IMG/VR virus record: IMGVR_UViG_2061766007_000803
DNA: 20,000 nt
Origin: an uncultured virus (IMG/VR IMGVR_UViG_2061766007_000803)
Taxonomy: Duplodnaviria > Heunggongvirae > Uroviricota > Caudoviricetes
Strand: one strand, 5' to 3'
Part shown: piece after piece, positions 1,754 through 20,000 of the stretch
Position numbering within the stretch: the first letter of the stretch is position 1
How the letters are laid out: every line of letters begins with the position of its first letter
Position numbers and translations under genes: made by a program
The notes under the pieces: model-generated
What the model was told of the DNA's origin: nothing
The model's database searches: none
Seen by the model: only the letters and a program-made list of their open reading frames with translations

Positions 1754-3059
1754 ATGAAAAGGAATATTCCAATTTATTTTGATAATGCCGTCATAATGTC
1801 ACCTGCTGAACCCATCGGCAATGGGTCCTCAGGTCTTAATAGATTAAGAGTTGGCGTATTTACTAAATATAGTAACCGCAATGGTTCTTATATTACTGAT
1901 GCAGTTGCCAATATGATGATTGATGGGACAATGAGCCGCCCAACTCCAGTAGTTGGATTCTTTGACCCAGAATCAAAAACATGGGCAAGTCATACCGGAC
2001 CAGACCTTGCAAATGCATATGGTTATGTAGAAGGTTTCGAAGGATGGAAGCCATTCGTAGATACCGATGGCGTTGAGCGCGAATACGCTGTTTTCTCTGT
2101 GGCTTTATTTACAAATTATTTTAATGAAGCCAATTTTGTAGTTGGACAAAATCAATCAATGGAACTTGATATTCACTCAATTGAAGGTAATTGGGCGAAT
2201 ATCGGTGACAAAGAATATTTTGTCTATACCAAAGCCGAAATCATGGGATTGTGTATCATTGGAGACCACGAACCATGTTTCTCAGTATCTTCATTCTTTA
2301 GTAAGAATGATGATGCATATAAATCTCAATATGATAAGTTCTCTTCTCTATTGGCTGATTTGAAAGCTAAAGTGGAAGAGGCAGAAAATCAACCAATCGA
2401 AGGAGGGGAACATCAAATGGAAAATGAAATGAATCCCGANNNNNNNNNNTGAAGCTCCGGCTGAAGAACCTGTAAACCAGGAGCCAGAAGCTCCAGTTGC
2501 AGATGAGCCTGCCGCTGAAGAACCAGCTGCAGAACCAGAACAGGAACCGGCTGCAGAAGAACCTGCAGAGGAACCTGCGGCTGAAGAGCCTGCTGCTGAG
2601 CCTGAAGGTGAAAAGGGTGAAGAACCCGCAGCGGAAGAACCTGCTGCAGATTTTGAAGCACAGATTACTGAACTTCAGAATCAATTAAATGAAATGACTA
2701 CTAACTACGAAAATGCTCAAACTCGTATCGCAGAACTCGAAGCCCAGATAACATCCGCGTCTGAGACTGAGACCAATCTACGTAATGAGATTGCTACTTA
2801 TGAAGCCGAGCGTGCTCGTTTAGAGGTAGAAAAGAAAAATGCTTTAATTGAACGTTATGAGAATAATCTAAATGATGACGAACTTGAAGATGTACGTAAT
2901 CATGTAGCTGAATATTCTTATAATGAAATTGAAAGCAAGTTAGCAATTACATTTGCTAATAAACAAATGGCTGGCAGTGCTGACAACAAAGTAGTTCCAC
3001 TACCAGAACCTGTTGTTGACGACTTCGCGGAATTTATGAAGAATTACCGCAAGAATTAA
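1754..3059 (+). CDS. Prohead protease / scaffold fusion protein
   Basis: SD AGGAGG at 1741-1746, then ATG 1754. The N-terminal domain (NRNGSYIT, QSMEL, GLCIIG..EPCF) is typical of capsid maturation protease-like proteins. After a 10-N gap (2440-2449) the frame at 2451 continues through an acidic Pro/Ala/Glu repeat and a coiled coil into track ORF 2694-3059 (TAA). No in-frame TAG. Confidence 0.75.
2417..3059 (+). CDS. Putative nested scaffold protein translated from an internal in-frame start
   Basis: Internal SD AGGAGGGG (2401-2408) precedes in-frame ATG 2417 (MENEMNP) exactly at the boundary between the protease-like domain and the acidic/coiled-coil region. Confidence 0.55.
2451..2648 (+). 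repeat. Coding tandem repeat (EPAAE-type units) in the scaffold region
   Basis: Translates to EAPAEEPVNQEPEAPVADEPAAEEPAAEPEQEPAAEEPAEEPAAEEPAAEPEGEKGEEPAAEEPAA, with 7 EPAA copies and varied synonymous codons. Confidence 0.9.
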
Positions 3060-3072
3060 GGAGGAATAAATC

Positions 3073-3674
3073 ATGGGTAATTATGTAAGATTTCCGATTA
3101 CCAATGTTGAAGGCGATTTAGTTGCTCAGTATCGCAATCCTAGAGAAAAGCTATATGCCAGCCTCGAACTAAACCAAGTAGCATTCCCAAAGACNNNNNN
3201 NNNNNNNNNNNNNNNNNNNNNNNNNNNNNNNNNNNNNNNNNNNNNNNNNNNNNNNNNNNNNNNNNNNNNNNNNNNNNNNNNNNNNNNNNTGGTATCGTAT
3301 ATACCACAGAAAAAGAATATGATATGATGCATTATGGTCTACAGCGCTTTGGCCGCAAGATTGCTGGGGATTATCCTCGTGTTGGTCTATTTGGCATTGG
3401 CGATACTGTAACCACCAACTGCTTACAGTATAGTAAGACTAATTTCGCTACTGAAGCGGCTTTACTAGAAGCATTAAAGAAGGACTTATCCGTTGCTGAT
3501 AACGCCCTATATGTTGTTCCTGGTGTAAACTCTGACTTAGCTGATGATTCTGCTAAGGCTGTTCCAGAAATTGTTAAGGCTGCTCCTCAATCCGGCATTT
3601 ATGGCCGTATTACTAAGTTCTACACGATTCCTAACGGCGGTATCGGCGTTAAGTATCAGATTATTAAACTATAA
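3073..3674 (+). CDS. Head decoration / capsid-stabilising-like structural protein
   Basis: SD AGGAGG at 3059-3064, ATG 3073. Track ORFs 3073 and 3324 join across the N gap at 3195-3289 (GIVYTTEKEYDMMHYGLQRF...), ending TAA 3672-3674. It lies between scaffold and capsid, has high-expression codon usage and no TAG. Function is inferred from position. Confidence 0.6.
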
Positions 3675-3688
3675 TGGAGGTGCGACTT

Positions 3689-4797
3689 ATGGATAGACTA
3701 CATATGTTAATGAACGGTGTATTTGGTCGCGCCNNNNNNNNNNNNNNNNNNNNNNNNNNNNNNNNNNAAATTATGATTATGAAGCCGCTCTCCGTGATGA
3801 ATTAGCAAAGCTAATGACCAAGGATGGCGTACACTTCAATCGTCACGTCTTCAATCGTAACAAGGAAGACGTATTTGAACTCCTAGAAGAAAATCTACAG
3901 GAAATGCTTCCACAGAACATTAAGAGTGCTCTCGATATGTTCGTAGAAGTAAAGCATTATGCTCAGGGCCAGCGCCCAGAGTTCCGCGTTGTTCGCGGCA
4001 AGATTCGTGGCAAGCAGTTTGTAACTCGTGCTACCGAATCTGGTAACTATGAGACCTTCCGTCTAGACCGTGATCGCTTTGATTTATACATCCAGGCAAT
4101 CGGCGGCGCTGGATATGTTGACTTCGAACGTTATCTTGATGGTCTTGAAAACATGACCGATATCTATGAAGTAATCCAGGAAGGTATTGTTGACCGTCTA
4201 TTCGAAATGGTACAGGAATGCTTACTAGCTTCTTGGAACGCTGCTGGCCGTCCAGTACGTAACAAGGTAGCTGCTAATACCTTCAATCCTGCTGCTATGA
4301 AGAAACTTTGCAACACCGTTGCTCCTTATGGCTCCCCAATTATCTATTGCACTCCTGAGTTCGCCGCAGAAATGGTAAATGCTATTATTTATAATGCAAC
4401 CACCAAGATTTCTGATGTTGACATGCAGGAAGTTCGCGACCGTGGATACATTGGTAAGTTCCAGGGTGTACCAGTTGTTGTTATGCCTCAGTCCTTCACT
4501 GATGAGAAGAACGAGAAACTAATGTTCAACCCATCTTTCGCTTATGTCCTACCAGCTGGCAAGGAAAAGATTATTAAGATGGCATTTGAAGGTTCTCCTT
4601 ACTTCCGTGAGTGGGATGACCACGAAGGCGACAACCAGTTCACTCTACAGGGCTATGTAAAGGTTGGTGTTGGCCTATTTACTACTCCTAACTACTGGGG
4701 CATCTATTACAATAGTGCTCTAGACGATGGTTCTGGTTGGGAAACCTATAATCAGGCTCTAGTTCCTACTTTTGATGACGGTACCGCTAATTCCTAA
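3689..4797 (+). CDS. Major capsid protein
   Basis: SD GGAGGTG at 3676-3682, ATG 3689 (MDRLHMLMNGVFGRA), N gap, then track ORF 3814-4797; about 370 aa. It contains GYIGKFQGVPVVVMPQ, typical of HK97-fold capsids, has strongly biased codon usage, is followed by a terminator and has no in-frame TAG. Confidence 0.85.
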
Positions 4798-4813
4798 TAG
4801 ATGATATAAAGTT

Positions 4814-4852
4814 GGGAGGGAGAGATTCTCTCTCCCTCCCGGTTCTTTTTTT
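4814..4852 (+). terminator. Intrinsic terminator after the major capsid gene
   Basis: Perfect 12-bp stem GGGAGGGAGAGA (4814-4825) / TTC loop / TCTCTCCCTCCC (4829-4840), followed by GGTTCTTTTTTT. Confidence 0.85.
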
Positions 4853-4876
4853 GGAGATAAAAGGAGGATTTAAATT

Positions 4877-5314
4877 ATGATTAGAATTAAAAACGTAAGT
4901 ACTTCGCTCGTATCTTTATATGTGCCAAGTATTAGATTAAATCGTGAATTGACGCCAGGGCGCGCAATTCCAGTATCCCAGGAAGAATATGAAGAACTAA
5001 CTTTCGATCCTGGTTTTATGGCTCTTGTTAATGGACATTATGTTGTAATTGAGGGCATTGAAGAAGAACGCCAGGTAACAGAAGTTGGCCCTGTATTTGA
5101 AGCAAGCAAAATTGAAAAGATGCTTCTTGAAAATGATGTAGCTGCTTTTATTAAGTTTATTCCAAATGCAACTGAAGCAGAAAAGGAAAGCGCAGTTACA
5201 TTAGCAGTCGAGCATAAGATTACCAATTCTGGTATCGTAGCTTTAATTAAGAAATACTGCGACGTTGATGTTATACAGGCTATTGCAGCTAAGCACGACG
5301 CAGAAGAGAAGTGA
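4877..5314 (+). CDS. Hypothetical phage protein (145 aa) following the capsid gene
   Basis: SD AAGGAGG at 4861-4867, complete ORF, TGA stop, no TAG. Confidence 0.8.
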   Translation: MIRIKNVSTSLVSLYVPSIRLNRELTPGRAIPVSQEEYEELTFDPGFMALVNGHYVVIEGIEEERQVTEVGPVFEASKIEKMLLENDVAAFIKFIPNATEAEKESAVTLAVEHKITNSGIVALIKKYCDVDVIQAIAAKHDAEEK

Positions 5315-5320
5315 TGAAAA

Positions 5321-5782
5321 ATGGCAACACCCTTCTTAAAGGTTTATGATGCTTTTCTCGCGCGAATAACCGCCGATGAATGGACATTAGAAGAAGAGTT
5401 AGCTATCGTTGAACGAGATTGGCAAGAGCTTCTCAAAATGGCTATTGCTCGGTTTAAATATCCTCGTGTGAGTTTAGATTTTGAGGAGGTTAACGCCGCT
5501 GAAGATGAAGAAAACGCTCCTCAACTTAAAATATATTAGTTTACTAGTGATTTAACCAATGATGAAATTCAGCTTCTTGCAGTTTATATGAAGCATGAAT
5601 GGATTAAACGTTGTGTTGCTAGTTGGGAACATATTGGTCAGCTCTATACTTCAAAGGATTTCTCTGCCGCGAATCACTTAGATAAATTAAACGACCTTGA
5701 AGCAAATGTGTTGCGTGAGGTCGAAGAACAGTAGGATATATATGATAGGTCTAGAGGAAAAGTCCCTGCAGATATCTTTAGA
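5321..5782 (+). CDS. Head-tail adaptor / neck-type protein (TAG-recoded; 3' end in N gap)
   Basis: MATPFLKVYDAFLARIT... reads through TAG 5537 and TAG 5732 (FTSDLTNDEIQLLAVYMKHEWIKR...KDFSAANHLDKL) up to the gap at 5783-5792. The FSxANHL motif and position suggest a head-completion protein. Confidence 0.6.
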
Positions 5783-5792
5783 NNNNNNNNNN

Positions 5793-6061
5793 CTAAAGTC
5801 ACATTTGATGGCTATAAAGGTAAACTAAAAGGACGTCTATATGGACTACTTTGTGAGCGCGAAAAAGACGGAGAATGGGAAAAATTCCTTGATACTCTAA
5901 TCATTGAATTACGAGGCTTGGGAGCCAATTCTATTAATTGGTGGCCGCTTATGGGTAAATTAAATGCATTAAAATATATGTCTTATGAATATTTTAGAAA
6001 GACAATATTTGAATGTATTAATTTAGTTGGCGGTTTAGATATCCCGGATGAATTACGTTGA
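5793..6061 (+). CDS. Small hypothetical protein (start lost in N gap)
   Basis: Open frame from 5795: KVTFDGYKGKLKGRLYGLLCEREKDGEWEKFLDTLIIELRGLG...YEYFRKTIFECINLVGGLDIPDELR-TGA (6059-6061), overlapping the next start at 6048. It is missed by the ORF track. Confidence 0.7.
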
Positions 6062-7242
6062 TGTATATTTTTCCCGTGTAAATCACTTTGGAGAAACGCC
6101 AGCTGAACGAATTAAAAATAGCGGGATTGTGGCTTTTGAAAAATGGATGGCACAATCTCCATTTACAGTTACTGACTTATCCGTAGAACGTGGTTACTAT
6201 TTTAGCGGCATAATACAAACCAATAAGGATAAGGAAGAAAAGAAAATCATGTATTTGTATGTTGCTAATGATATACCAATTGTTGTTGGTGATATACTTA
6301 CATGGAGACAAGATAATGGAGCCATTGAAAAATGGCTTTTATTATAGAAAGAGCATAAAGTGCATGAATAGTATCAAACATTTTAGATAATTAAATGTAA
6401 TTATGAATTAAGATGGATTGATGCTGATGGCTATTTACATAAGTCTTGGGCTTATGCAGTAAGTTCGGTAGATAGTAAAGTTAAAGGTAATTTCCGTATG
6501 TGGCATTCACTAATTTCACCACAGCCTAATAAGTTTGCAGAAATTATTATGCCAAGACCCGAATTAAAAGGTACTGATAAAGATGAATTAATGCGTGGAA
6601 TTACTTTTATTATTGAGAACGAAGGTTGGGTAGTTATTGAATGTGACTGGACTAGCGTTGAAGGTATTGTTTATATGTCTTTAACTGAAAGTAAAGTAAA
6701 CTATCAATATGATGACCGTGATTTAGACGTCGCGGCTCTTGATAGATATAAATTCCCAATTTTACAGCCATTATATAAGGTAGGAGATTATATTATACCA
6801 GAATTTGAGCCAGAAACGCTGAATGAATGGGAAATTGAATTAATTCCTACAAATAGTGCATTAGTTCAAAAAGATGAAGAAAGTGGTCACTGGCAGGCAA
6901 TCGCGGCCGGTAAGCTAANNNNNNNNNNNNNNNNNNNNNNNNNNNNNNNNNNNNNNNNNNNNNNNNNNNNNNNNNNNNNNNNNNNNNACTGCATATATCG
7001 AAGGGCCAGATGAAATTAGATTAGATAGATATGCGACTTATAAATTACATGGAACTAGCGAAATAATTGGCGCAGTTACATTTGATTTAGAAGAATCACC
7101 ATATGCTAGCGTATCTAATATAGGAACTAATGAAATAGCAATTCATGCCAATGCTAAAAATAAATTAGGGGAAGTTATTTTAAGCGCTACGTATAATGGG
7201 GTAACCTATACGAAGACAATTAAAATAGTACCTCTATGGTGA
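6048..7242 (+). CDS. Head-closure / head-tail joining-type protein with beta-rich (Ig-like) C-terminal extension (TAG-recoded)
   Basis: Track ORFs 6048-6347 and 6498- are in one frame joined via TAG 6345, 6369 and 6384 (VGDILTW...WLLLQKE...FQIIKCNYELRWID). After the gap at 6919-6987 it reads TAYIEGPDEIRLDR...YTKTIKIVPLW-TGA (7240-7242). Confidence 0.6.
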
Positions 7243-7252
7243 GGTGAGTTAA

Positions 7253-7759
7253 ATGCCAGTTAATGAACCAACACAGCGGCGATTCGCAGTTATGGGCACA
7301 AATGCATTTAATATCGCCAATAAACTAATGCAAAATTAGCGTTTATGTCGTCTTCTTAAATACCAAGTAAGAGACCCTTTTGATGAATAGAAATATGAGA
7401 ATGTTGATGGAGTATTACTCCTAAATAAGCAAATTATGATTACTCCCAAAATTTGGGACGAAAGTACGGAGAAAACTTCATATATAGTTGCATTGTTCGA
7501 TGATTTTACTACCAACTTAATAAATCCAGATTACAAGATAGATACAATTAGTTTTGATATAGCTTGTCCTTATGATGAATGGGTTTTAAGTGGTACATCA
7601 TTACGCCCATATCTTATTATGGAAGAAATTGATAAGATGTTTAATGGCGCGCAAATGTCTGGTATTGGAACATTACAATTTGTAAGAGCAGATAGAAATG
7701 TATTTACCTCACAAATTGGCGGCTACACTATGAAGTATAGTATTAATGAATTTAACTGA
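7253..7759 (+). CDS. Tail completion / tail terminator-like protein (TAG-recoded, 168 aa)
   Basis: SD GAGGTGA at 7241-7247, ATG 7253. It reads through TAG 7337 and 7388 (NKLMQNQRLCRLLKY) into track ORF 7436-7759 (FDIACPYDEW...RPYLIMEEIDKMFN), TGA stop. Function is inferred from position. Confidence 0.6.
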
Positions 7760-8523
7760 TTCAGATGTTCTCAAGTTTCAAAAAGGTAGTCCGGTATTTA
7801 TAGACGATATTTGCGCGGTTTATCCTGCAACTCTTGGAGAGATTGTAGACCTTGGCTATGATAAATTTCAACAATATTTATCAATTGCTACTGCAACGAA
7901 ACCTATAACAAACAAAGCTGATAGAGAATTAAATGAATNNNNNNNNNNNNNNNNNNNNNNNNNNNNNNNNNNNNNNNNNNNNNNNNNNNNNNTTAGCAAC
8001 AAATGCATTGTTTAAACAAGCATTACATTTCTTTACACATGAAGAAATAACAATTGTTTCTAATCCACCCAGTATTCTCGTTGGCCCTTTAGTAGAATAG
8101 CGGATTATGAATGAACAATAGTTTTATGACTTTCAACATTTAATTAGGCGCATGTATTTTCTTGAAACTGAAGCCGATGAAATTATTATATATTAGAATG
8201 ATGACCCAATCACACGAAGTATAAAAGAGAAGATGCGCGCAAATAGAGAAAAGGTTAGAAAGGCAAAAGCAAAGTAGAGTCAAGGTAGTGATTCCGATAT
8301 GAAATTATCGGACCTCATTGGTAGTATGACTATCAATGATTGTGGCCTAAATATGGTAAATATTTGGGATATTACATATTATGCTTTTCACGATTAGCTA
8401 AAGCGGATGGGCTGGCGTGACTAGTTTAATATAAATTAGAAAGCCGCCCTCGCGGGCGCGAAAATCAAAAAATCACAGTTAAAGCATTGGATGCGTTCCA
8501 TTGCAAGCTCTGATAAATCATGA
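7746..8523 (+). CDS. Conserved hypothetical tail-assembly-region protein (TAG-recoded, ~258 aa)
   Basis: ATG 7746 overlaps the upstream gene. After the gap at 7939-7992 the frame from 7993 is open except for 7 TAGs (8098, 8119, 8194, 8275, 8395, 8422, 8437) and ends at TGA 8521-8523, just before the tail-tube SD. It contains NIWDITYYAFHD(TAG)LKRM and AALAGAK. Confidence 0.75.
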
Positions 8524-8543
8524 TTTATAAGGAGGTAACTTTT

Positions 8544-9515
8544 ATGGCAAGTAACGTTAATATTTTTGATAAGTATGGCATTAAAGAAGTTGCTAACGTT
8601 TACTTTGAGGCTCTAGATGACGATGCTGCTGCTGGCGTATACGCTGGTGATATCGTTCTATTCCTAGATACTCTAAAAGTTTCCACCATTGAAACTACTG
8701 CCGAGAATACCGCTGCACAGGGCGGTTGGGGTAATCCAAAACTCGTACAGTGGGACTATGGTAAGGAAATTAATATTACTCTAGAAGATGCTCTAATGTC
8801 CTTAGAATCCCTACGTTTCATGTTAGGCGGTGCTATTAAAAAATCCGGCGTAGACGGTGCTAAGGTAGTAGTACGTCATACTGAAGAAGTTGTTTGCACC
8901 ACTGGTGGCGCGGTTCCACTACCAAAAGACCATCTTACTAATGCAACACTACATCCAGTTGCTACTTATGAACATCCAATTCGTTTAATCAACTTAACAA
9001 CCGGTGCTCGTACTCAGCTAAAGCCAGCAACTGCAGCTGCAGCTTCCATCTCCATGGATGGCGAAAAGGCTATTCAGTTTGTTAATCCTAAGATGCTTGG
9101 TGCTGAACCAGAAACCACCAAGGCTGGCGACCACATTCGTATTTTCTGGGAAGAAGAAGTAGCACAGTCTGGTACAGATGCTGATAGCGCTGTTGAAGTA
9201 ACTATTTCTCCTGATACCTTCCCAGGCACCTATCGTGTTGTTGGTGATACCTTCATGCGTTCTGAGAAGACCGGTAAGGATGAACCCTTCCAATTTGTTA
9301 TCAACAAGGCAAAGGTACAGAGCAACGTTACCATCACTCTACAGGCTGAAGGCGATCCTTCTACCTTCGAGATGACTCTAAACGTACTCCGTTCTACCAA
9401 CGATGAAGGTCAGAACGAAATGATGAAGCTAGTTCGTTATAATATTGAAACCGCAACCGCTTCTGGTTCTGGTGACGATATTGGTTCTCTAACCGTAGCG
9501 ACCTCTGCTGGCTAA
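8544..9515 (+). CDS. Major tail (tube) protein, 323 aa
   Basis: SD AAGGAGGT at 8529-8536 favours ATG 8544 over the track start at 8520. Motifs include YGIKEVANV, AQGGWGNPKLVQWDYGKE and ITLQAEGDPSTFEMTLNVL. It has high-expression codon usage, no TAG, and a terminator follows. Confidence 0.8.
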   Translation: MASNVNIFDKYGIKEVANVYFEALDDDAAAGVYAGDIVLFLDTLKVSTIETTAENTAAQGGWGNPKLVQWDYGKEINITLEDALMSLESLRFMLGGAIKKSGVDGAKVVVRHTEEVVCTTGGAVPLPKDHLTNATLHPVATYEHPIRLINLTTGARTQLKPATAAAASISMDGEKAIQFVNPKMLGAEPETTKAGDHIRIFWEEEVAQSGTDADSAVEVTISPDTFPGTYRVVGDTFMRSEKTGKDEPFQFVINKAKVQSNVTITLQAEGDPSTFEMTLNVLRSTNDEGQNEMMKLVRYNIETATASGSGDDIGSLTVATSAG

Positions 9516-9562: not shown

Positions 9563-9579
9563 AATAGGTGGTGATGCCT

Positions 9580-10340
9580 ATGATGGACCAGTATTTTGGT
9601 CATAAAGAATTATACGAGGTTGTTTTGCGCGCGAAAAATCCTATGCAATTCGGTGATAGATATATTGAGGCGCAAGAACCTGTATTATATTTTGATAATT
9701 TACAAATGTCTTTATTAAGTGAATAGAATCGTCCTGTGTTCGCTCGTGGTGGTTGGGCAAATATGCCTAGAGTCATTTGGGATGAGCGTAGTGAAGTTTA
9801 GTTTTAGATGATTGAAGGTGTAATGTCTTCTGTTGGTATGAGTATTCTATTAAGTTCGAATGTTCTATCAAAGTAGGAAAATTAGCCTTTATATATACAT
9901 AAAAAAGAAGGACCTTTCTCTATTGGACCGGATGGGTATGTATATTTGTAGCACTGGCCCGTAGCTCCAAATATAAAGAAAACATTTATCTTTGATTTTG
10001 ATAGAGAAGCGGTTCAAAAGAAAATTTATGGAAAATTAGTTCCAGGGATGACAGACCCTCTTGGTCAAGAATTACATTGTATTCAAATTTTTGAAGATAA
10101 AAATTGTACAATTCCAGCAGATAATAGTAGGAAATATTTAATTGATTACTACNNNNNNNNNNNNNNNNNNNNNNNNNNNNNNNNNNNNNNNNNNNNNNNN
10201 NNNNNNNNAAGATTTAATGGTCTTTTTACGCTAGAAGCGAAATTCTACTCAAAGGATGAAAATGAGGGCATAAATTATACGAATGTATTATATATGCCGA
10301 AAGTTAGGATTGTAAGTAACATTAACTTACGATTGGGAGA
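9580..10340 (+). CDS. Second, diverged tail-tube-like protein (TAG-recoded; 3' end in N gap 10341-10479)
   Basis: SD AGGTGGTGA at 9566-9574, ATG 9580. One frame with TAG at 9724, 9799, 9805, 9874, 9883 and 9949 joins track ORF 10048-. It aligns by eye with the upstream tail tube at both ends. Confidence 0.7.
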
Positions 10341-10505
10341 NNNNNNNNNNNNNNNNNNNNNNNNNNNNNNNNNNNNNNNNNNNNNNNNNNNNNNNNNNNN
10401 NNNNNNNNNNNNNNNNNNNNNNNNNNNNNNNNNNNNNNNNNNNNNNNNNNNNNNNNNNNNNNNNNNNNNNNNNNNNNNNTTATGGATTGAAAGGAGATGA
10501 GAATT

Positions 10506-13500
10506 ATGGGTCAAGCGAGCATTAATGTTGATATACTTGCTAAAGTTAAAGGCTGGCAAGAAGAATTAAACAAATTAAAAGCTGCCGCTAGTAAAATTGA
10601 CATTGGCTCTAGTTTTGGAAAATAGTTTGCANNNNNNNNNNNNNNNNNNNNNNNNNNNNNNNNNNNNNNNNNNNNNNNNNNNNNNNNNNNNNNNNNNNNN
10701 NNNNNNNNNNNNNNNNNNNNNNNNNNNNNNNNNNNNNNNNNNNNNNNNNNNNNNNNNNNNNNNNNNNNNNNNNNNNNNNNNNNNNNNNNNNNNNNNNNNN
10801 NNNNNNNNNNNNNNNNNNNNNNNNNNNNNNNNNNNNNNNNNNNNNNNNNNNNNNNNNNNNNNNNNNNNNNNNNNNNNNNNNNNNNNNNNNNNNNNNNNNN
10901 NNNNNNNNNNNNNNNNNNNNNNNNNNNNNNNNNNNNNNNNNNNNNNNNNNNNNNNNNNNNNNNNNNNNNNNNNNNNNNNNNNNNNNNNNNNNNNNNNNNN
11001 NNNNNNNNNNNNNNNNNNNNNNNNNNNNNNNNNNNNNNNNNNNNNNNNNNNNNNNNNNNNNNNNNNNNNNNNNNNNNNNNNNNNNNNNNNNNNNNNNNNN
11101 NNNNNNNNNNNNNNNNNNNNNNNNNNNNNNNNNNNNNNNNNNNNNNNNNNNNNNNNNNNNNNNNNNNNNNNNNNNNNNNNNNNNNNNNNNNNNNNNNNNN
11201 NNNNNNNNNNNNNNNNNNNNNNNNNNNNNNNNNNNNNNNNNNNNNNNNNNNNNNNNNAATGAATTTGTTACTAACAATCTTGCTACTTTAAATGATGCAA
11301 GAAATCGTTTACAAGAATCTATAAGACAGCTTTATCCCGAATCAGACGCAGCAAAATTAGCAGAAAATTTTGTTAATGCTGTAAAAAATGGTAATTGGGA
11401 AGAAGGAAAGTAGGCTTTATAGGAAAAGTTAGGCGAGTATAAAATTGCTATTGATGGCAGAAAAGCAGAAATAGAAACTTCTTTAAAAGAAATTACTGAT
11501 TTAATTAATAATACTCGCTCTGATATGCAAGCAAAACAATATACTCAGGGCGTTACTAGAGAGGCTCTTGAAAAAGATTGGCCTGAATTAGTTAGATAGT
11601 TAACTGAGCAAAATAAGAACTTAGATGATAGAGTTAAGAAATTAGAAGCTGAACTCGCATAGAAAGTTAGCGGAATGGTTTCTGATGTAAGAGCCACTGG
11701 CGTAAATACAATGCAATAGTCAAAAGCAGCTCTTATGGAAAATGCTAATGCCGCGAAAGTATATAGAACTGAATTAGAAACAGTATAGGCAAGAGAACAA
11801 TTAGTTGGAAAAGTTCAAGGGGTTGTACAACGCTGGTTTAGTATTTATGCCGCAGTTCGTATGGTTTCTAATGCAATTAGGTCTATTATTTCTACTGTAA
11901 AAGAATTAGATGCAACAATTACAGAAATTGCAATTGTTACTAAGATGGATTAGAATTAGTTATGGGGCCAAATGGATACTTATACTTCTATGGCTCGAGC
12001 ATACGCTGCATCTATTTCTGGTGTATATAAAGTTTCTCAGTTATACTATCAACAGGGTTNNNNNNNNNNNNNNNNNNNNNNNNNNNNNNNTTAACTGAGC
12101 AAACATTAAAAATGGCTCGTATTTCTGGTTTGGATTATGCACAAGCAACTGACTATATGACGAACGCAGTTCGTTCTTTCAAACTAGAAATGACAGATGC
12201 TCAAAGTGTTGTAGATACATATTCAGCTATCGCGGCAAAATCTGCTACAAGCGTAACTGAATTAGCAACCGCTATGAGTAAAACTGCTTCATCTGCACAA
12301 TCTGTGGGCGCAAGTTTACAGAGCACTACTGCAATGATGGCAGTAATGATTGAAGCTACTCGTGAATCTCCAGAGAATATCGGTTCTGCTATGAAATCTA
12401 TTATTTCTCGTTATGGTGAATTAAAAGAGAATAAAACCGGTATAGATGCTGAAGGTGAAGAATATAATTTAAACAAAGTTGATAAGGCATTACAAACTGT
12501 TGGTTTAAGTATTCATGATGTAAATGGTGAATTCCGTGATTTTGATGACGTTATTATGGAATTAGCAGAAAAATGGGATACTATTGATAAGAATACATAG
12601 CGTTACATTGCTACTATTATGGCTGGTAACAGACAACAGTCTCGTTTCTTAGCATTGGTATCTTCTTATGACCGTTTAAAGGAATTAACTGCTGAAGCCG
12701 CGGATTCTGAAGATGCATCACAATTACAGTTCTTAAAAACACTTGATTCTGTAGCAGCAAAGACTCAATAGCTACAAACAAGTTTACAATCTTTATATGT
12801 AGATACAGGAATTGAAAAATTATATAAGGGATTATTAGATACAATTAATAATATAGTAGTATCTCTTACTAACTTACCAACAGTAATGGATTTACCAATT
12901 CCTGCTATTACTAAGATAGCTACAACCTTTATGAGTTTAGCAAACATAGTTACAACTATGTTTGGAATTATAAAGGCTTCCGTAAGCGCGAGATTAAAAT
13001 AGCTTTCTCAAGAAACTATCGCTGGCGTAGAAGAAACTGTCGGCACTAGTAATACGGCCTATCAATAGGATGTTGATAATTTTACTACAGCAGCACAGAG
13101 AAAAGTAGAAGTTGAAAAATAGGCTTAGGAATAGATTAGAGAAGCCAGATAGGGCAGTAATGTAGATCCGTCTACAATTGGTGGAGGCTCTGGAGGAAAA
13201 GGTGCCAGTGGAAAAGTAAAAGTTACTAGAACTATGGCATTAACAGGAGTTGCATTAAATCTCGCGGGGTTAGCTTTATAGACCGCTGCTGATAAAAAAG
13301 ATGAGCGAACTAAAGCAAACAGATAGTCAAAAGCCGCTTTAACAGGGATTAGTAATCTACTTTAGGGTGCGGGCTTAGGATTATCTATTGGTGGAATAAA
13401 GGGCGCTGCGATTGGTGCTGGTTTAGGTATACTTAAAGGTGCAATTGAAGCAATTGGTATTGCCACTGAAACTGTAAAAGAAAAAGTTGATAATTTATCA

Positions 13501-16500
13501 CATTCAATAGAAGAAGCCGGTAACAAGAGAATACAATCTAAGGCTGAGTTAAAAACTTTAGAAGAATATAAAGCTAGATATGATGAGTTAAATAAAGCTT
13601 AGTATGAAAGTGCAGAAAAGAAACAAGAATTTATTAGTTTATAGAATGAAATTGCCGCGACTTATCCAGAATTAATTCAAAGAATGACAGAAGAGGGCAA
13701 TTATGTTGTAAACATGACAGAAAGCTATAAACGTCTTGTTGAAGCTAAGCGTGAAGCATATAAAGCCGATTTAATTGAATCCATTTCTGCTGAAGTAACT
13801 GGTTTAAGTGATGTTGATTATATTTTAAAAAGTCTTTATGGACATACATCTTTAGAGTCTAAAAAGAACTTTATTGGTTGGGAAACTGATAATTATGAAA
13901 AATTACTTAATATGGATTACAGTTCTCCTGTACTTACTAAATATTCTGAAATATTTGATGCATTTTCAGATAGAACACAATATAAAGATTATAATACAGC
14001 TAGACGTTTATTTAATGGTAATAATTATTTTAATTCTAATACTCCATTAACTTTTGATTTTATAGGCGGNNNNNNNNNNNNNNNNNNNNNNNNNNNNNNN
14101 NNNNNNNNNNNNATATATAGAATTTGTTAGAGCAATGAAAGAAGGTTTAGATTTAAATTCCGCAAAAACTTAGGTTCGCAATCAATTTGGTGAAAAATAC
14201 GAAGAATTAATTAATAATTTTGATGTATAGTTCTATAAAGAATTATAGCTAAGATATTTAGTTCCAAAGTTTTAGGATACTTTGACCACGAACGCTTTAA
14301 GTTCTTATGCAACAGAATATGTACATATTTTAGCTGNNNNNNNNNNNNNNNNNNNNNNNNNNNNNNNNNNNNNNNNNNNNNNNNNNNNNNNNNNNNNNNN
14401 NNTCTGAATGGAACTCTGAGTTTAGCGCGAAGTATTTGGCGGCAAAGGATGAAGATGAAAGAAAGTAGATACTTCAAGATTTCTTTACTAGCCATGAAGA
14501 AGTTTGGGCACAAACTNNNNNNNNNNNNNNNNNNNNNNNNNNNNNNNNNNNNNNNNNNNNNNNNNNNNNNNNNNNNNNNNNNNNNNNNNNNNNNNNNNNN
14601 NNNNNNNNNNNNNNNNNNNNNNNNNAAATTGGAAAGTAAATGAAGTAGAAAAAACAAGAAAAGAATTCTTTGATAGTATTTTTGAAAATGATTACAAAGA
14701 TATAATTAATACTTATAAAAACTGGATATCACAAGAAGATACTTCACAATATGGAGCTAAAGATTATTCTAATGTATTTGGGCCAGACTTNNNNNNNNNN
14801 NNNNNNNNNNNNNNNNNNNNNNNNNNNNNNNNNNNNNNNNNNNNNNNNNNNNNNNNNNNNNNNNNNNNNNNNNNNNNNNNNNNNNNNNNNNNNNNNNNNN
14901 NNNNNNNNNNNNNNNNNNNNNNNNNNNNNNNNNNNNNNNNNNNNNNNNNNNNNNNNNNNNNNNNNNNNNNNNNNNATTAGACTATTATTGGAAATAGTAA
15001 TTTATCAGATTCCTTAAAGAAAGAATAGGTTAAAGGTTTAAATAATATATATGATATTATTGCTAGTGATGCATTGAATANNNNNNNNNNNNNNNNNNNN
15101 NNNNNNNNNNNNNNNNNNNNNNNNNNNNNNNNNNNNNNNNNNNNNNNNNNNNNNATTGACTCTTTAAGTGGGGTTGAAGGATTAAATTTAGATACAGCTG
15201 GTCTTACTGATGCTATTCTCAATTTTAGAAAATATCTTTATGTAAATATTAATACAGAAATAGAAAATATTATTAATACTTATACTTCAAATATTTCTGA
15301 TTTAGAAAAAGATATTTCTTCTGCTGTTAATGGCATGGATTTTAAATCTGCTTCTGAAATGGCAAATAAAATAGGAAAGCCATTATCTGAATTTAGATTT
15401 TATGCTGGAAAATNNNNNNNNNNNNNNNNNNNNNNNNNATTATAGAATATTATGAAAGTCAAAATAAAGATTATTTAAATGATTTAAACACAGAATTTTC
15501 TACCGTTAAAGATAAATTTGCTTCATTAAATGTAAGTAAACGAGTAGTANNNNNNNNNNNNNNNNNNNNNNNNNNNNNNNNNNNNNNNNNNNNNNNNNNN
15601 NNNNNNNNNNNNNNNNNNNNNNNNNAAATAGAAGCAGCAGGATTAACCGTATAGCAATTAAAAAGTGTATATTATACCGCACGTAATGCTACTTATAATA
15701 GTTAGGGTCATTATGACGAAAAGAAAACTATTGAAAATTTTAATCAAAGATTATTAGAACTACTAGAAAATTCTCCTAAAATTGAAGAAATATCTTCATT
15801 AAGTATTGATGATTTAATTGAGGTAAATAAAACTGAGCAAGAATTAAAAGATGCCCTTTCTAAGGAAGATACCGCGAAACGTTTAGTTGATGCTGGTTTA
15901 ACTATTGACTAGGTATTATTCTATGCTCAAGAATATCGTAATCGTGCAGAAGAGGATATTAATAAATCTTTTATTGAATGGCTAGGAGATTATTTACAAC
16001 AATTATGGAATTCTACTGTAGCAGAAACAGATAAATACACATAGTATTTATCTGCTAGTTCTATGTTATCTTCTGGTAATATTAGTGGTTTCGTTGATAA
16101 AACTTGGGGAGAGCAAAGAAAGAAGCAAATTCGTGCAAATATAGAACATAGCGCACATTGGAATAATGCTACAATAGAATAGATTAATGAAGAAGTTGAG
16201 CGACAATATAATGAATTACCAGAAAGACAAAATTTAATTGAAGCAATTAGTCGTGGTGNNNNNNNNNNNNNNNNNNNNNNNNCTGAATTAATTTATAATA
16301 CATATAAAGATGTAGCTTCTAATATTTTTACTTCTTTAGTCGATGGAATTAATAATGGCGATACACAAATAATTGTTAATGATAAGAATAAAAATATTTT
16401 AGACAAGATGCGTCAAGATGGGTTTGTTATTGGTGGTACTGAAGGAGAACTCAAAGAAGGCGATATTGTATAGATTGCATCTGAAGTATTAAATGGGACT

Positions 16501-19500
16501 AAATCTTTAAATGAGTGGATTAATGAAGTATATACAAATGAATCCGAACGTTTAAAGGCTATATAGGAATATCACGCGGCTATTACAGGCTCCAAATATA
16601 CTTAGATAACATCCTTAATGGATAATGATTAGACGGTAGAATTTAATGATTTTACAAATTATTTAAGTACTTCTGGAATTTTAAGTAGTAATTAGTTATT
16701 TACTAATGATAATAAGATTAGCCAAGAACTCAAGGATAATTTAGATAAGTATGGTTTAAAATATAATGAAGCAGCTGGTAATTTCATTATTGAAAACGAA
16801 GAGAAATATTTACAATCATTAATAGATGATTTAGGTACTCTTAACAATTCTAATTCTACTCTTGAATAGCGTAATGAATTACGCGCAAGGATTTCTAAAA
16901 TAAAGCATANNNNNNNNNNNNNNNNNNNNNNNNNNNNNNNNNNNNNNNNNNNNNNNNNNNNNNNNNNNNNNNNNNNNNNNNNNNNNNNNNNNNNNNNNNN
17001 NNNNNNGCACGAGTAAACTTAGTCTTCAATATTTTAATGATTTACTAAATGAATCAAATCTTTCTGATACTACTCGTGCAGTGATAGAAGAACTACTTAG
17101 CGGAATTTTAGATGATTATCTTAGCGGTATTTCTAATGCTGCAGGATATACAGTTAATGGCACCAAAAAAATATCTGATATGCAAAAGTTCATTAATGAA
17201 TATAATGAACATAATGAACATATATCAGTTGCAGATGCATTTAAATGGGATGAAATTTTAGATAGCTGGACATTAAAACCAGAATATCTAAAAGCATATT
17301 TAAATTCTCAACGAGAAGCACTGATTTCTGAAGGATTTGATGAAAATTATATTAATAGTTATATTTATTCAGAAATTGAGTCTATCAAGAATAATGTCGA
17401 TATTTCTGGTTTCTTATCTGCAGAACCAAGCGCACAATCTCGTCGTACATTAGAAAACGCAATGAAAGCCGCTCTTGCTGTAAGCACCGAGTTTACACAA
17501 GAAATTATTAATGCACAAGTAGAAACTGATATTCATGCTCTTGAGTCTGGCGGCGAAGNNNNNNNNNNNNNNNNNNNNNNNNNNNNNNNNNNNCGTATCA
17601 TTACTACTGAAGAAATTGAAAATGCTTTCTATCATGCCGCGAATGTACTTCAAGATGCTTTAAGTTCTTTAGGAAGTATTACTGTAGGACAAATTACTAC
17701 CGGTAAATTAAAAGAACATTTAGCAAAAGCAGGAATGATAGACGCAGATGGCGTTATTACTTCTGTAAAAGAAATGGTAGCTGTTTATGCAAGTATTTAT
17801 GAAGAAATGAAAAATACTGCAGGAACTACTACAGCTGATTTAAATAGTGCTTTTGCAGAAATATTAACAGCACAAGATAAGCAACGTACAGATGCTTTAG
17901 ATACTTTAGAAAACGCTTCTGGTATGACGTATGATGCTTTCGCTGAGTTATTAACATCTTATAATTTAAGTTTTGAGGAAGTTTTAACTTAGGCACAAAG
18001 TTATGGAGTACAAACAACCGGTTTTGGAAAGATTCGCATTGTTGATTTTAAACAATTTGCAAGTATGATGGGCTGGGATATTAATAGTCCAGAATATGCT
18101 GAAGCTTATAATAATTGGGTTAATAGCATGACTGAACTACAAAACCAACCTATTACATTAATGCAAAATGCAACAGAACAATTATCTGGAATTCTTGAAG
18201 CAAAACCAAATCAAAGAATGAATGTATCTTATTTAGAAAGAACATTCAATCTTATTGGAGAAGATTTAGGAGCCATTGTTGGAAAATATGGTGCAGAATT
18301 ACACAATGGTATTTTAACTGTTTCTGAAAATACAGATATTCCTAATCTTGTTGCTGAAATCGCTAATGTCGCCGCGGAAGCTGGAGCAATAATTCCAGAA
18401 GAACTTGCAAAATTAGCAGATGCGGTTAAAGAAACACTTGCTTCTATTGTTTCTTTACTTTCTGGTGGTTTAAGCGGTAATTTAGATAATGCTCAAAAGC
18501 AATAGTTAAGTGAATGGGCAAGTCTTCATGGAATAGAAAGATTAACATTCACTGAAACCGCAGAAGGATTTAAACTCGCTAATGGTTCTGCAATTGAATT
18601 GGTACAGAAAGTTCGTGAATTAGACGCTTTACAAGGTGAAGTTGCATTTGGTCACCTTAAAGATAATTTAATCGCAACTGAAGATATTTTTGCTACTGTA
18701 ACAAGTCAAGCTGCAGATTTAGCAGATTTACAAGCATTTGTAGATTATGAAAAGTTTAAAAAAGAGATAATTCAAAATAGTAATAAGGTTGAATTATTTG
18801 ATGAATTACAAGCAAAAGGTAATGTTTAGAATCTATATAACCGTAAACGTATTAATAATGCAGACGGTTCATATTCTACACTATTAACCACAACTTTAGA
18901 TTCCCGTAATTTTGAAACGGATGTTCCTTGGATAATGAACATTACGCCAATTACAGAGGATGGAAAAATATTATCTGAAGAAGAATTAAGTAATTATGTT
19001 AAAGAATTAATTGAGGGTACAAACGGCAAGTTAGAGTCTGTAATGAAAGCTGATAAAGAAGGTTTAAGTTTAATTCTTGAAATGGCTGANNNNNNNNNNN
19101 NNNNNNNNNNNNNNNNNNNNNNNNNNNNNNNNNNNNNNNNNNNNNNNNNNNTAGTGAAGCTTATGAAGCTGTTAAGGCTGGCGAAACCTATGATGATACT
19201 AAGATACAGCAATATGAAGAAGAATTAAGACTAAATCAAGAAATTCTTGCATTACGTTCTACTTCACAAGATAGTACATTTAGCTTCATGTCTAATAAGA
19301 TACCTGGAGCACAAAATAATCCTATTAATTATATGGAAAATTGGTTTAGCGCGATGTCTACTATTGATGATTCCGTTAAATCTGGCTGGATGGATTATAG
19401 TAATTTCTATAATATCATTACAGCAATGGGAGAATTATCAAAGATAACAGGCGAAGCAATTCCAATTGGTACAGATATTGCAGTTAATAGTGAAAACGTT

Positions 19501-20000
19501 GCTCAACTTATCGAACAAGCAGCCGGTTATATGAAAATTGATGCCAGTGATGGAAAGTATAAGATTAATTTATCTGGACTTTCTCAAATGGGTATTGATT
19601 TTGCGGCTGCGGGTGTAGATATGAAGGGTAATGTCACCGAGGGTATACATGATTATGCATAGGCTCAAGTTGAAATGCTTGATGGTATGATTCAAGTACT
19701 TGAAACTATTGTAGCTATGTAGAAACTTGGTGAGATTACAGGTGCCGACAATAAGATTGATATGACTGATTTATTCCCAGAATTTAATATGGATGATGAG
19801 AATGAAAAGCATATCATGAATAATGAAAAAGCAATAAAATGGGCAGAAGAGTTATTAAGTTCATAGANNNNNNNNNNNNNNNNNNNNNNNNNNTATAGAA
19901 TATCAAAATAAACGGACTATCATTACATGATTTACTAACAGATGCAATAACTGAAGGTAAGGGTCTTAATGAAGAAAATGCGAGATTATTGTCAATAGCG
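10506..20000 (+). CDS. Giant tail tape measure protein (TP901-type core; >3,100 codons; TAG-recoded; 3' truncated by window)
   Basis: SD AAGGAG at 10491-10496, ATG 10506 (MGQASINVDILAK). Every ungapped segment has one + frame interrupted only by TAG (~47 by hand count), with no TAA/TGA. Tape-measure core motifs at ~11890-12700 include VKELDATITEIAIVT, YYQQG, ATRESPENIGSAMKSIISR and DKNT(TAG)RYIATIMAGNRQQSRFLAL. A gene boundary hidden in an N gap cannot be excluded. Confidence 0.85.

Follow-up and report, generated by a model that had tools for sequence, protein, structure and literature searches.

Why do neighbouring genes of one late operon treat a reassigned stop codon so differently? The question is raised by a 20,000-nt stretch of DNA from an uncultured virus of the Caudoviricetes (IMG/VR record IMGVR_UViG_2061766007_000803), which was analysed at its full length and is here called the window. 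This stretch represents the late structural operon of a tailed phage of ~150-190 kb that reads TAG as glutamine (Gln). Between positions 1754 and 9515, the genes for the predicted major capsid protein, for its small upstream neighbour and for the probable tail tube protein lack TAG, whereas the minor virion genes beside them contain it repeatedly. A first-pass annotation, made from the letters alone, had proposed that TAG is costly and is purged from proteins made in bulk, and further that it might act as a rheostat or a timing gate for the low-copy ones. The first idea is supported by the relatives of this phage: the depletion of TAG in bulk genes is graded, recurs in independent recoded lineages, and is present as an ordinary codon bias in relatives that keep the standard code. 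We consider it likely that the depletion is ordinary translational selection on codons in the most heavily made proteins; for the second idea we find no support.

TAG counts in the window and in related phages

In the window, the capsid gene (3814-4797) contains 14 CAG and neither CAA nor TAG, and the tube gene (8520-9515) has 8 CAG, 1 CAA and no TAG. The segments 1754-2452, 2694-3059, 3073-3327, 3324-3674 and 4877-5314 have 0 TAG each. Immediately before the tube gene, the gene at 7993-8523 carries 7 TAG, 4 CAA and 1 CAG, and the gene immediately after it (9568-10500) carries 6 TAG; all of the per-gene counts of the first-pass annotation were reproduced. When pooled, the bulk genes of the window have 0 TAG, 11 CAA and 34 CAG, compared with 16 TAG, 22 CAA and 8 CAG for the non-bulk genes within 1754-9515 (Fisher p=6.3e-6) and 75 TAG, 119 CAA and 23 CAG for all other window genes (p=7.7e-8). 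Bulk genes and the rest differ when TAG is compared with CAA alone (p=0.008) and when CAG is compared with CAA (p=4e-13). The zero in the putative protease/scaffold gene of the window is not significant by itself, as 13 Gln codons at the family share of 0.12 would give no TAG ~18% of the time.

These counts had to contend with 1,978 N distributed over 23 masked runs. The reading frame shifts across many of these (for example 2440-2449, 3195-3289, 3734-3767 and 7939-7992), and as a result the gene list used in the first pass was split there, with short out-of-frame tails after masks, and codon counts are safe within unmasked stretches only. A recount in which each unmasked stretch was taken in its own open frame gave the same result as the first count, and a complete relative, G005, served as the guide for correcting gene models. 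All convincing genes of the window lie on the + strand and are open only with TAG as a sense codon: the portal and tape measure genes, among others, are broken under translation table 11 and whole when TAG is sense, and from 10491 on each unmasked stretch is open end to end in one frame.

Relatives were collected by searching IMG/VR with the capsid protein, and the best 80 of 104 related stretches (107 candidates) were kept, with capsid identities of 66-96% and contigs of up to 190 kb. Codes were assigned from coding density together with TAG counts in aligned orthologues, which gave 53 TAG-recoded and 27 standard-code loci; the recoded relatives have a coding density of 0.3-0.5 under table 11 versus 0.9-1.0. 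Fifty of the recoded loci read TAG as Gln, and the other three (L060, L073 and L077), assigned to glutamate (Glu), were treated separately. For the window itself, alignment points to Gln as the meaning of TAG: of 600 residues that standard-code orthologues place against window TAG sites, 212 are Q, with K next at 88; the codon opposite TAG in close pairs is CAA in 209, CAG in 139 and GAA in 64 of 611 cases; and TAG is present in 50 of 65 conserved-Q columns.

Summed over the 50 TAG=Gln loci, the counts for the capsid gene are 2 TAG, 78 CAA and 589 CAG, so that TAG makes up 0.3% of its Gln codons. The 3324-3674 segment, which is the 3' part of the upstream neighbour gene, has 0 TAG, 40 CAA and 153 CAG, and the tube gene 3 TAG, 41 CAA and 239 CAG (~1% TAG). 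In seven minor genes, TAG accounts for 0.30-0.51 of Gln codons. Equal rates of TAG in capsid or tube genes and in minor genes of relatives, which the first-pass annotation had named as grounds for refuting its proposal, were not observed (0.3% and 1% against 30-51%). Between these extremes are the 4877 gene (7 TAG, 80 CAA and 64 CAG over 48 loci) and the N-terminal part of the protease/scaffold gene (50 TAG, 308 CAA and 50 CAG). The depletion is therefore graded, from the capsid, cement-like and tube genes to the 4877 gene, then to protease/scaffold, and then to the rest. A single TAG is nevertheless found in 2 of 50 capsid genes (L051 and L024) and in 3 of 39 tube genes (L021, L027 and L053). 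Of the genes listed as TAG-free in the first pass, the capsid gene, its upstream neighbour and the tube gene keep that status in the family and the 4877 gene roughly does (TAG in 6 of 50 loci), but protease/scaffold does not, with TAG in 27 of 51 recoded loci; in both of the last two genes, the TAG-free or TAG-bearing state flips among close relatives.

Counting by alignment column gives the same picture. TAG columns number 2 of 325 in the capsid and 3 of 312 in the tube, compared with 11-24 per 100 columns in minor genes. At conserved-Gln columns of the capsid, turnover between CAA and CAG is seen at 8/8 and TAG at 0/8, and at those of the seven minor genes and protease/scaffold, TAG appears in some relative at 34/34. 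Among minor genes, TAG density is similar whatever the likely copy number (1.3-2.8 per 100 codons).

The gene that follows the tube gene provides a natural control. It is a paralogue from the same family, phrog_2729, and its orthologues have 154 TAG, 141 CAA and 20 CAG; because one family thus holds a TAG-rich member, the protein family is not the cause of the depletion. The two paralogues, 8544-9515 and 9568-10500, are adjacent and have opposite codon habits in the window, one TAG-free and CAG-rich and the other with as many TAG as CAA.

Genes of the late block

The features of the window, after correction of the gene models, are as follows.

3-197, + strand: 3' end of the large terminase gene, with 1 in-frame TAG; the G005 orthologue (625 amino acids) matches phrog_2 and has identical end residues.
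194-1741, + strand: portal (phrog_2739, E=1.4e-66), TAG-rich with 5-6 TAG, 9 CAA and 4 CAG.
1754-3059, + strand: putative prohead protease/scaffold, a label from position only; 0 TAG, 8 CAA and 5 CAG in sequenced bases.
3073-3674, + strand: upstream neighbour of the capsid gene, a single gene (201 amino acids in G005), strongly codon-biased and TAG-free.
3689-4797, + strand: predicted major capsid protein, HK97 fold; 0 TAG, 0 CAA and 14 CAG, with the phrog_4088 match at 3814-4797.
4877-5314, + strand: gene for 145 amino acids with no assigned function, TAG-free in the window and moderately codon-biased.
5321-7239, + strand: minor virion genes (phrog_3853; phrog_29637; phrog_10703/5251), with 2 TAG in 5321-5782 and 5 in 5973-6917.
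7253-7759, + strand: virion structural protein (phrog_6123); 2 TAG, 6 CAA and 1 CAG.
7746-8523, + strand: phrog_4051 gene, a single gene (259 amino acids in G005) with 7 TAG in its second half.
8544-9515, + strand: probable major tail (tube) protein (phrog_2729, E=1.7e-50); 0 TAG, 1 CAA and 8 CAG.
9568-10500, + strand: tube paralogue, also phrog_2729; 6 TAG, 6 CAA and 1 CAG.
10497-20000, + strand: 5' part of a giant tape measure gene that runs off the window (phrog_4211 TMP, E=1.6e-51; PF10145).

The phrog_4088 protein is assigned as a major capsid protein with the HK97 fold from its predicted structure. An AlphaFold2 (AF2) model has a mean predicted local distance difference test score (pLDDT) of 76.6 and a predicted template modelling score (pTM) of 0.75, and a Foldseek search of the PDB with this model gave a best E of 2.4e-10 at probability 1.00 and 379 matches at E<=0.001, which include encapsulins, lambda gpE, HK97 and many phage capsid proteins. 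A search of PDB sequences with the capsid profile gave no match. The capsid gene starts at 3689, with GGAGG just 5' of the start, and a TAG at 3694 is out of frame.

The 8544-9515 product is probably the tube protein, as suggested by profile matches and by position. The annotation of phrog_2729 is 'virion structural protein' only; the protein has a weak match to the phrog_4971 major tail protein family (E=0.0085), its profile finds the tail tube proteins 8k98_A and 9jgh_A in the PDB, weakly, at E=0.003, and its location upstream of the tape measure gene fits such a role. An AF2 model built from 16 sequences was too poor for a fold search (pLDDT 45.6). The gene starts at 8544 and not at 8520. 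In 13 standard-code loci the tube gene seemed to contain an in-frame TAG; read-through was considered and rejected, as this TAG is the stop codon of the upstream gene and lies before the true start. We also note that 9568-10500 sits between the tube and tape measure genes, the usual place of chaperone genes.

The 1754-3059 region is a single gene, corresponding to an open reading frame (ORF) of 443 amino acids in G005, and consists of a phrog_3313 N-terminal domain, an acidic Pro/Glu-rich linker and a C-terminal coiled coil. The 3073-3674 product is a possible capsid cement or decoration protein, a lead that comes from its Atlas neighbours, in which PF22758 Phage_cement is found in 12-59% of members; a Pfam hmmscan of nine late proteins of G005 at E<=1, this orthologue included, returned nothing useful. 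Family searches with 4877-5314 matched no family. The 7746-8523 region was taken as one gene because both halves match phrog_4051. The tape measure gene has 47 TAG in 2,668 sequenced codons of the window, and its complete counterpart in G005 (90125-105808) encodes 5,226 amino acids with 144 TAG.

TAG depletion as a form of codon bias

In the 27 standard-code loci, where TAG is not a sense codon, the same stratification into bulk and minor genes is present in preferred and avoided codons alike. The ratio CAG/(CAA+CAG) is 0.83 in the capsid gene, 0.79 in its upstream neighbour, 0.82 in the tube gene, 0.52 in the 4877 gene and 0.13-0.31 elsewhere, and AAG/(AAA+AAG) is, in the same order, 0.94, 0.82, 0.80, 0.62 and 0.17-0.38. 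The share of TAG in each gene of the recoded loci is inversely correlated with the AAG preference of the standard-code orthologue (Spearman rho=-0.91, p=4e-5, n=12 genes). Relative to minor genes, the bulk genes use CAG at 7.0 times the share, CTA at 5.5 times, TTC and ATC at 3.0 times each and AAG at 2.6 times; they also favour CGT and TGC, and avoid CGA, TCG, CTG, TCA and ATA 10- to 250-fold. On the same scale of bulk over minor share, TAG (0.012) lies within the range of other avoided codons (CGA 0.004, TCG 0.020 and CTG 0.046). Several of the codons preferred in bulk genes match tRNAs of the relatives G004 and G005, namely Leu-UAG (CTA), Lys-CUU (AAG), Glu-CUC (GAG), Thr-GGU (ACC) and Arg-ACG (CGT), and the standard-code G004 also encodes a Gln-CUG tRNA (CAG). 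The bias of the bulk genes may be an adaptation to tRNAs of the phage itself and not to those of the host.

These patterns are probably accounted for by a simple scheme. Codon selection would be strong on three genes, those for the HK97-fold capsid protein, its small upstream neighbour and the probable tube protein, and would act in the same way but more weakly on the 4877 and protease/scaffold genes. It would retain CAG as the Gln codon, together with AAG, CTA, CGT and NNC codons, and remove poor ones. TAG would be among the poorest, since its decoding relies on a suppressor tRNA from the phage and a missed reading terminates the chain, and for this reason would be purged in proportion to the amount of protein made. 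In low-copy genes (the portal, neck and tail parts, and the tape measure), selection would be too weak, so that Gln codons drift toward the ratio set by AT-biased mutation, with TAG about equal to CAA and both far above CAG. The gradient would then reflect expression level or copy number.

The minor genes agree with such drift. Pooled, they have Gln codon shares of 0.386 TAG, 0.492 CAA and 0.122 CAG, and a simple AT-pressure model at a third-position GC content (GC3) of 0.2-0.26 predicts about 0.44, 0.44 and 0.12. Although the first-pass annotation described low-copy genes as loaded with TAG, shares of 0.39:0.49:0.12 are close to this expectation, and to the extent that so simple a model applies, these genes appear to have drifted near the AT-mutation ratio instead of accumulating TAG.

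If base composition is the source of the drift in minor genes, it might be asked whether it also accounts for the bulk genes, which would simply be richer in GC, with the TAG share following GC3 and no selection on TAG. Bulk genes do have a higher GC content (0.43-0.45 vs 0.33-0.36), and the GC3 of the capsid gene is 0.38 vs 0.22-0.30. However, TAG and CAA have equal GC, and TAG ends in G, yet the TAG/CAA ratio, which is 0.5-1.3 for minor genes, is just 0.03 for the capsid gene and 0.07 for the tube gene. At a GC3 of 0.30, about that of the tube gene and the upstream gene (0.31), genes 5321 and 7993 reach TAG shares of 0.30-0.51 as opposed to 0-0.01; furthermore, the favoured Leu codon of the bulk genes, CTA, ends in A. 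The contrast between TAG and CAA and the difference between GC3-matched genes mean that GC3 does not fully explain the TAG fraction, whereas a full explanation by GC3 is what the first pass had said would refute its proposal, and we regard composition alone as an extremely unlikely explanation.

The history of the code in this family provides repeated instances of the contrast. A combined portal and capsid tree (FastTree, 77 rows, with Shimodaira-Hasegawa-like support only) requires at least seven changes of code, with standard-code, TAG=Gln and TAG=Glu phages interleaved. TAG density is lower in bulk than in minor genes in 10/10 recoded clades, including two TAG=Glu clades. In clade A, bulk genes have 4 TAG in 19,815 codons and minor genes 793 in 43,733; the corresponding values are 0 in 3,500 and 127 in 7,924 for clade H, and 0 in 675 and 60 in 1,974 for the TAG=Glu locus L077. 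Taken together, the three TAG=Glu loci have no TAG among the 62 Glu codons of the capsid gene, whereas TAG makes up 31 of the 114 in their portal gene.

That TAG appears to be read as glutamate and not glutamine in L060, L073 and L077 (whole records G003 and G002) is an observation in its own right. In L077, 28 of 134 conserved-Glu columns contain TAG and none of the 65 conserved-Gln columns does; in L060, the counts are 12 of 139 and 1 of 65; the codon opposite TAG in other loci is GAA in 1,894 and GAG in 395 of 4,068 cases. L077 is sister to a TAG=Gln clade with support of 100. A literature search for TAG=Glu phages found no paper. Three further loci (L036, L037 and L058) have just 3-5 TAGs in the aligned genes and may represent an early or a late stage of recoding.

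The interleaving of codes invites a different explanation, in which capsid and tube genes are free of TAG since they are exchanged between standard-code and recoded phages and only TAG-free alleles work in both. At least seven code changes among intermixed phages would suit such traffic, as would the fact that bulk genes are the most conserved (mean identities to the window of 80% and 73% vs 50-69% for minor genes). Exchange would leave unexplained the extreme bias at other amino acids (CTA, AAG, CGT and TTC), and the portal and terminase genes would have to travel as well, yet they are TAG-rich. We think it very unlikely that portability is the cause.

Several points weigh against translational selection as the full account. 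Codon bias is used here as a proxy for how strongly genes are expressed and for copy number, with high expression inferred from function, and an all-or-none requirement would likewise give near-zero TAG in three genes. The tube assignment is weak, given E=0.003 and a failed fold model, and the roles of 3073-3674, 4877-5314 and 1754-3059 are putative. The loci are related, so pooled counts overstate their independence. Approximately half of all genes, replication genes included, are TAG-free without codon bias and need a separate explanation in terms of early and late expression. The first-pass annotation had asked whether TAG share follows codon adaptation in relatives; among late genes it does, as described above, but over the whole genomes of five relatives TAG share is only weakly correlated with AAG preference (rho -0.04 to -0.38) because the TAG-free early genes are not codon-biased. 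A single variable that explains every TAG-free gene was sought and rejected, as genome-wide correlations with both AAG preference and GC3 are weak in these five relatives. Finally, Borges et al. (10.1101/2021.08.26.457843) report, in the available text, a crAss-like 'tail tube' family that prefers TAG, so the pattern is not universal, although that protein need not be a high-copy tube.

Translational selection in highly expressed late genes is familiar from T4-type phages, in which tRNA sets are linked to late-gene codon usage. As in those phages, the presumably most abundant virion proteins here have the strongest bias and several preferred codons match tRNAs of relatives; unlike in those phages, one of the synonymous codons is a reassigned stop, and its misreading truncates the chain instead of slowing it. 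A reassigned stop in use would thus behave as an ordinary but very poor synonymous codon, its frequency in each gene being a balance of mutation pressure and expression-dependent selection. With 50 TAG=Gln, 3 TAG=Glu and 27 standard-code relatives that share gene order, the family amounts to a natural experiment on codon cost. There is also a practical side, in that capsid genes of recoded phages often look 'standard-code' and are poor indicators of the code in use, so that gene callers judging the code from marker genes can be misled.

The phages described here resemble the code-15 gut and rumen phages of Borges et al. in reading TAG as Gln, in the tRNA(CUA) of relatives, in having standard-code replication genes and recoded structural genes, and in having close standard-code relatives. 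According to the available text of that study (10.1101/2021.08.26.457843), recoded stops are enriched or depleted across gene families by selection, and families were tested for enrichment only, with lysis genes and the crAss-like 'tail tube' as the enriched ones. By comparison, the contrast reported here separates genes of a single late operon and goes with ordinary codon bias. The main text of Borges et al. does not mention capsid depletion ('capsid' occurs 0 times), although its supplementary tables may list depleted families. The same pattern has already been mentioned for one phage: the accessible part of a report on an amber-reassigned Crassvirales phage (10.64898/2026.08.21.746148) states that the capsid gene lacks alternative codons and ascribes this to host translational bias. 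That statement, as far as the available text goes, is one sentence on one genome, with no tube or cement gene, relatives or standard-code baseline, unlike the present comparison. In the excerpted list of TAG-bearing genes of phAss-1 (PMC10607447), TerL and the tape measure are included and the capsid protein is not; Cook et al. (PMC11210395), in the portion available, found the capsid protein under table 11 in 407 of 715 code-15 genomes and under table 15 in 475; and the available text of a jumbo-phage survey states no preference for protein types. A full-text literature search found no systematic analysis of the TAG contrast between bulk and minor genes. We conclude that no new regulatory system is revealed here; the depletion is best read as an ordinary effect of selection on codons in phages of a known kind, and the natural control available here is unusually clean.

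Timing, read-through and the cost of TAG

A code switch probably exists in this phage family, as an early/late split is seen in G005. The genes for NrdD, DNA polymerase, RecJ, primase, DnaB, topoisomerase II and ligase each have 0 TAG in this genome and, though TAG-free, the replication genes are CAA-rich and without codon bias, and the terminase, portal, tail, sigma factor and resolvase genes bear TAG. Such a split is one argument for the timing gate or rheostat of the first-pass annotation, according to which the lack of TAG lets bulk subunits be made while the host code is in force, and the portal, neck and tape measure proteins await the suppressor tRNA or are made in amounts set by TAG. 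The near absence of TAG from three bulk genes is also what a gate would predict. Capsid protein made before the portal protein would favour portal-less dead ends in tailed-phage assembly, which counts against a gate of this kind. Moreover, the genes form a single late block in which all of them follow one another on the same strand, so that their timing is already set by transcription; TAG shares in minor genes are close to the mutational expectation, with no enrichment; and TAG density in these genes takes no account of likely copy number. The protease/scaffold and 4877 genes change TAG state among close relatives, and even the capsid and tube genes occasionally contain a TAG.

The distribution of TAG sites bears on the same question. 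Of the 305 TAG columns in TAG=Gln relatives, 203 are occupied in <=10% of loci and 3 in >50%, and none is occupied in >90% of these relatives, so that the signature of an amber gate, a TAG fixed across diverged relatives, was not found. In the portal, the tape measure and other genes, where TAG sites are unconserved, the highest occupancy is <=0.5. Two sites in the 7746-8523 gene are kept in ~90% of relatives, as a gate would have it: at alignment columns 49 and 146 of the 7993-8523 orthologues, 90% and 87% of 39 TAG=Gln relatives have TAG, a much higher occupancy than at any other site, which could be due to shared ancestry or could mark a site where TAG matters. TAG also lies nearer the 5' end than its synonymous codons do (mean relative position 0.445 vs 0.49-0.50; Kolmogorov-Smirnov p=2e-4 and 9e-7), as counted genome-wide in G001, G005, G008, G002 and G003, where crude start calls may inflate the excess in the first decile. 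A 5' skew would suit an early block, and may partly reflect over-extended start calls; it fits either gating or a lower waste from early termination.

The tape measure gene sets a limit on how inefficiently TAG can be read. With 144 TAG, per-codon read-through of 0.99 would give a yield of 0.99^144 = 0.24, and 0.95 would give 0.95^144 = 6e-4, so that a yield above about a quarter demands read-through of ~99% or better at each codon. At ~99%, a single TAG costs at most ~1% of the chains that pass it, and 5-10 TAGs would shift yield by just 5-10%, which leaves little room for a rheostat. With TAG sites scattered, densities that do not follow stoichiometry and near-complete read-through needed, we judge the gate or rheostat to be very unlikely. 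We attach as little probability to a suppressor-tRNA checkpoint, in which the capsid, cement-like and tube proteins would be made independently of this tRNA and the terminase, portal, neck and tape measure proteins would depend on it, with charged tRNA tying the onset of assembly and packaging to the condition of the infected cell. Were it true, this arrangement would have arisen on two occasions, under TAG=Gln and again under TAG=Glu.

For translational selection, in contrast, a loss of ~1% would be of the right size, being trivial for a protein of a few copies and visible to selection at hundreds per virion, and it fits the rare single TAGs of capsid and tube genes. The cost would come from competition with host release factor 1 (RF1) or from limiting suppressor tRNA. 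Genes for a release factor or for glutaminyl- or glutamyl-tRNA synthetase were not found in 5 relatives, and with no phage release factor among them, host RF1 is presumably still present, which makes competition with it a plausible source of the cost.

A search of the 20-kb window for tRNA genes found none, and thus no suppressor tRNA with a CUA anticodon. The complete relatives G005 and G008 encode a tRNA(CUA), which is absent from G001, the closest relative, in a record that is 79% complete. The tRNA(CUA) genes are at G002:50570-50643, G003:63845-63919, G005:5318-5410 (- strand) and G008:51768-51854 (- strand), and are of two kinds that match the Glu and Gln readings of TAG. Those of the TAG=Glu phages are ordinary tRNAs of 74-75 nt that are 84% identical to each other; those of the TAG=Gln phages are 93 and 87 nt long and 71% identical, and have a long extra arm of a sort unusual among Gln tRNAs. 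Similarity to the phages' own Gln and Glu tRNAs was tried as a guide to charging identity and set aside, since it is 58-67% either way and does not discriminate.

Two minor observations may be added. A region of ~30 kb in G005 (44800-76000) has short ORFs on both strands and a GC3 of 0.4-0.75 compared with 0.15-0.3 elsewhere, although these crude ORF calls may err. The base that follows TAG also differs from that following synonymous codons, with A more and T less frequent in TAG=Gln phages and C more and G less frequent in TAG=Glu phages.

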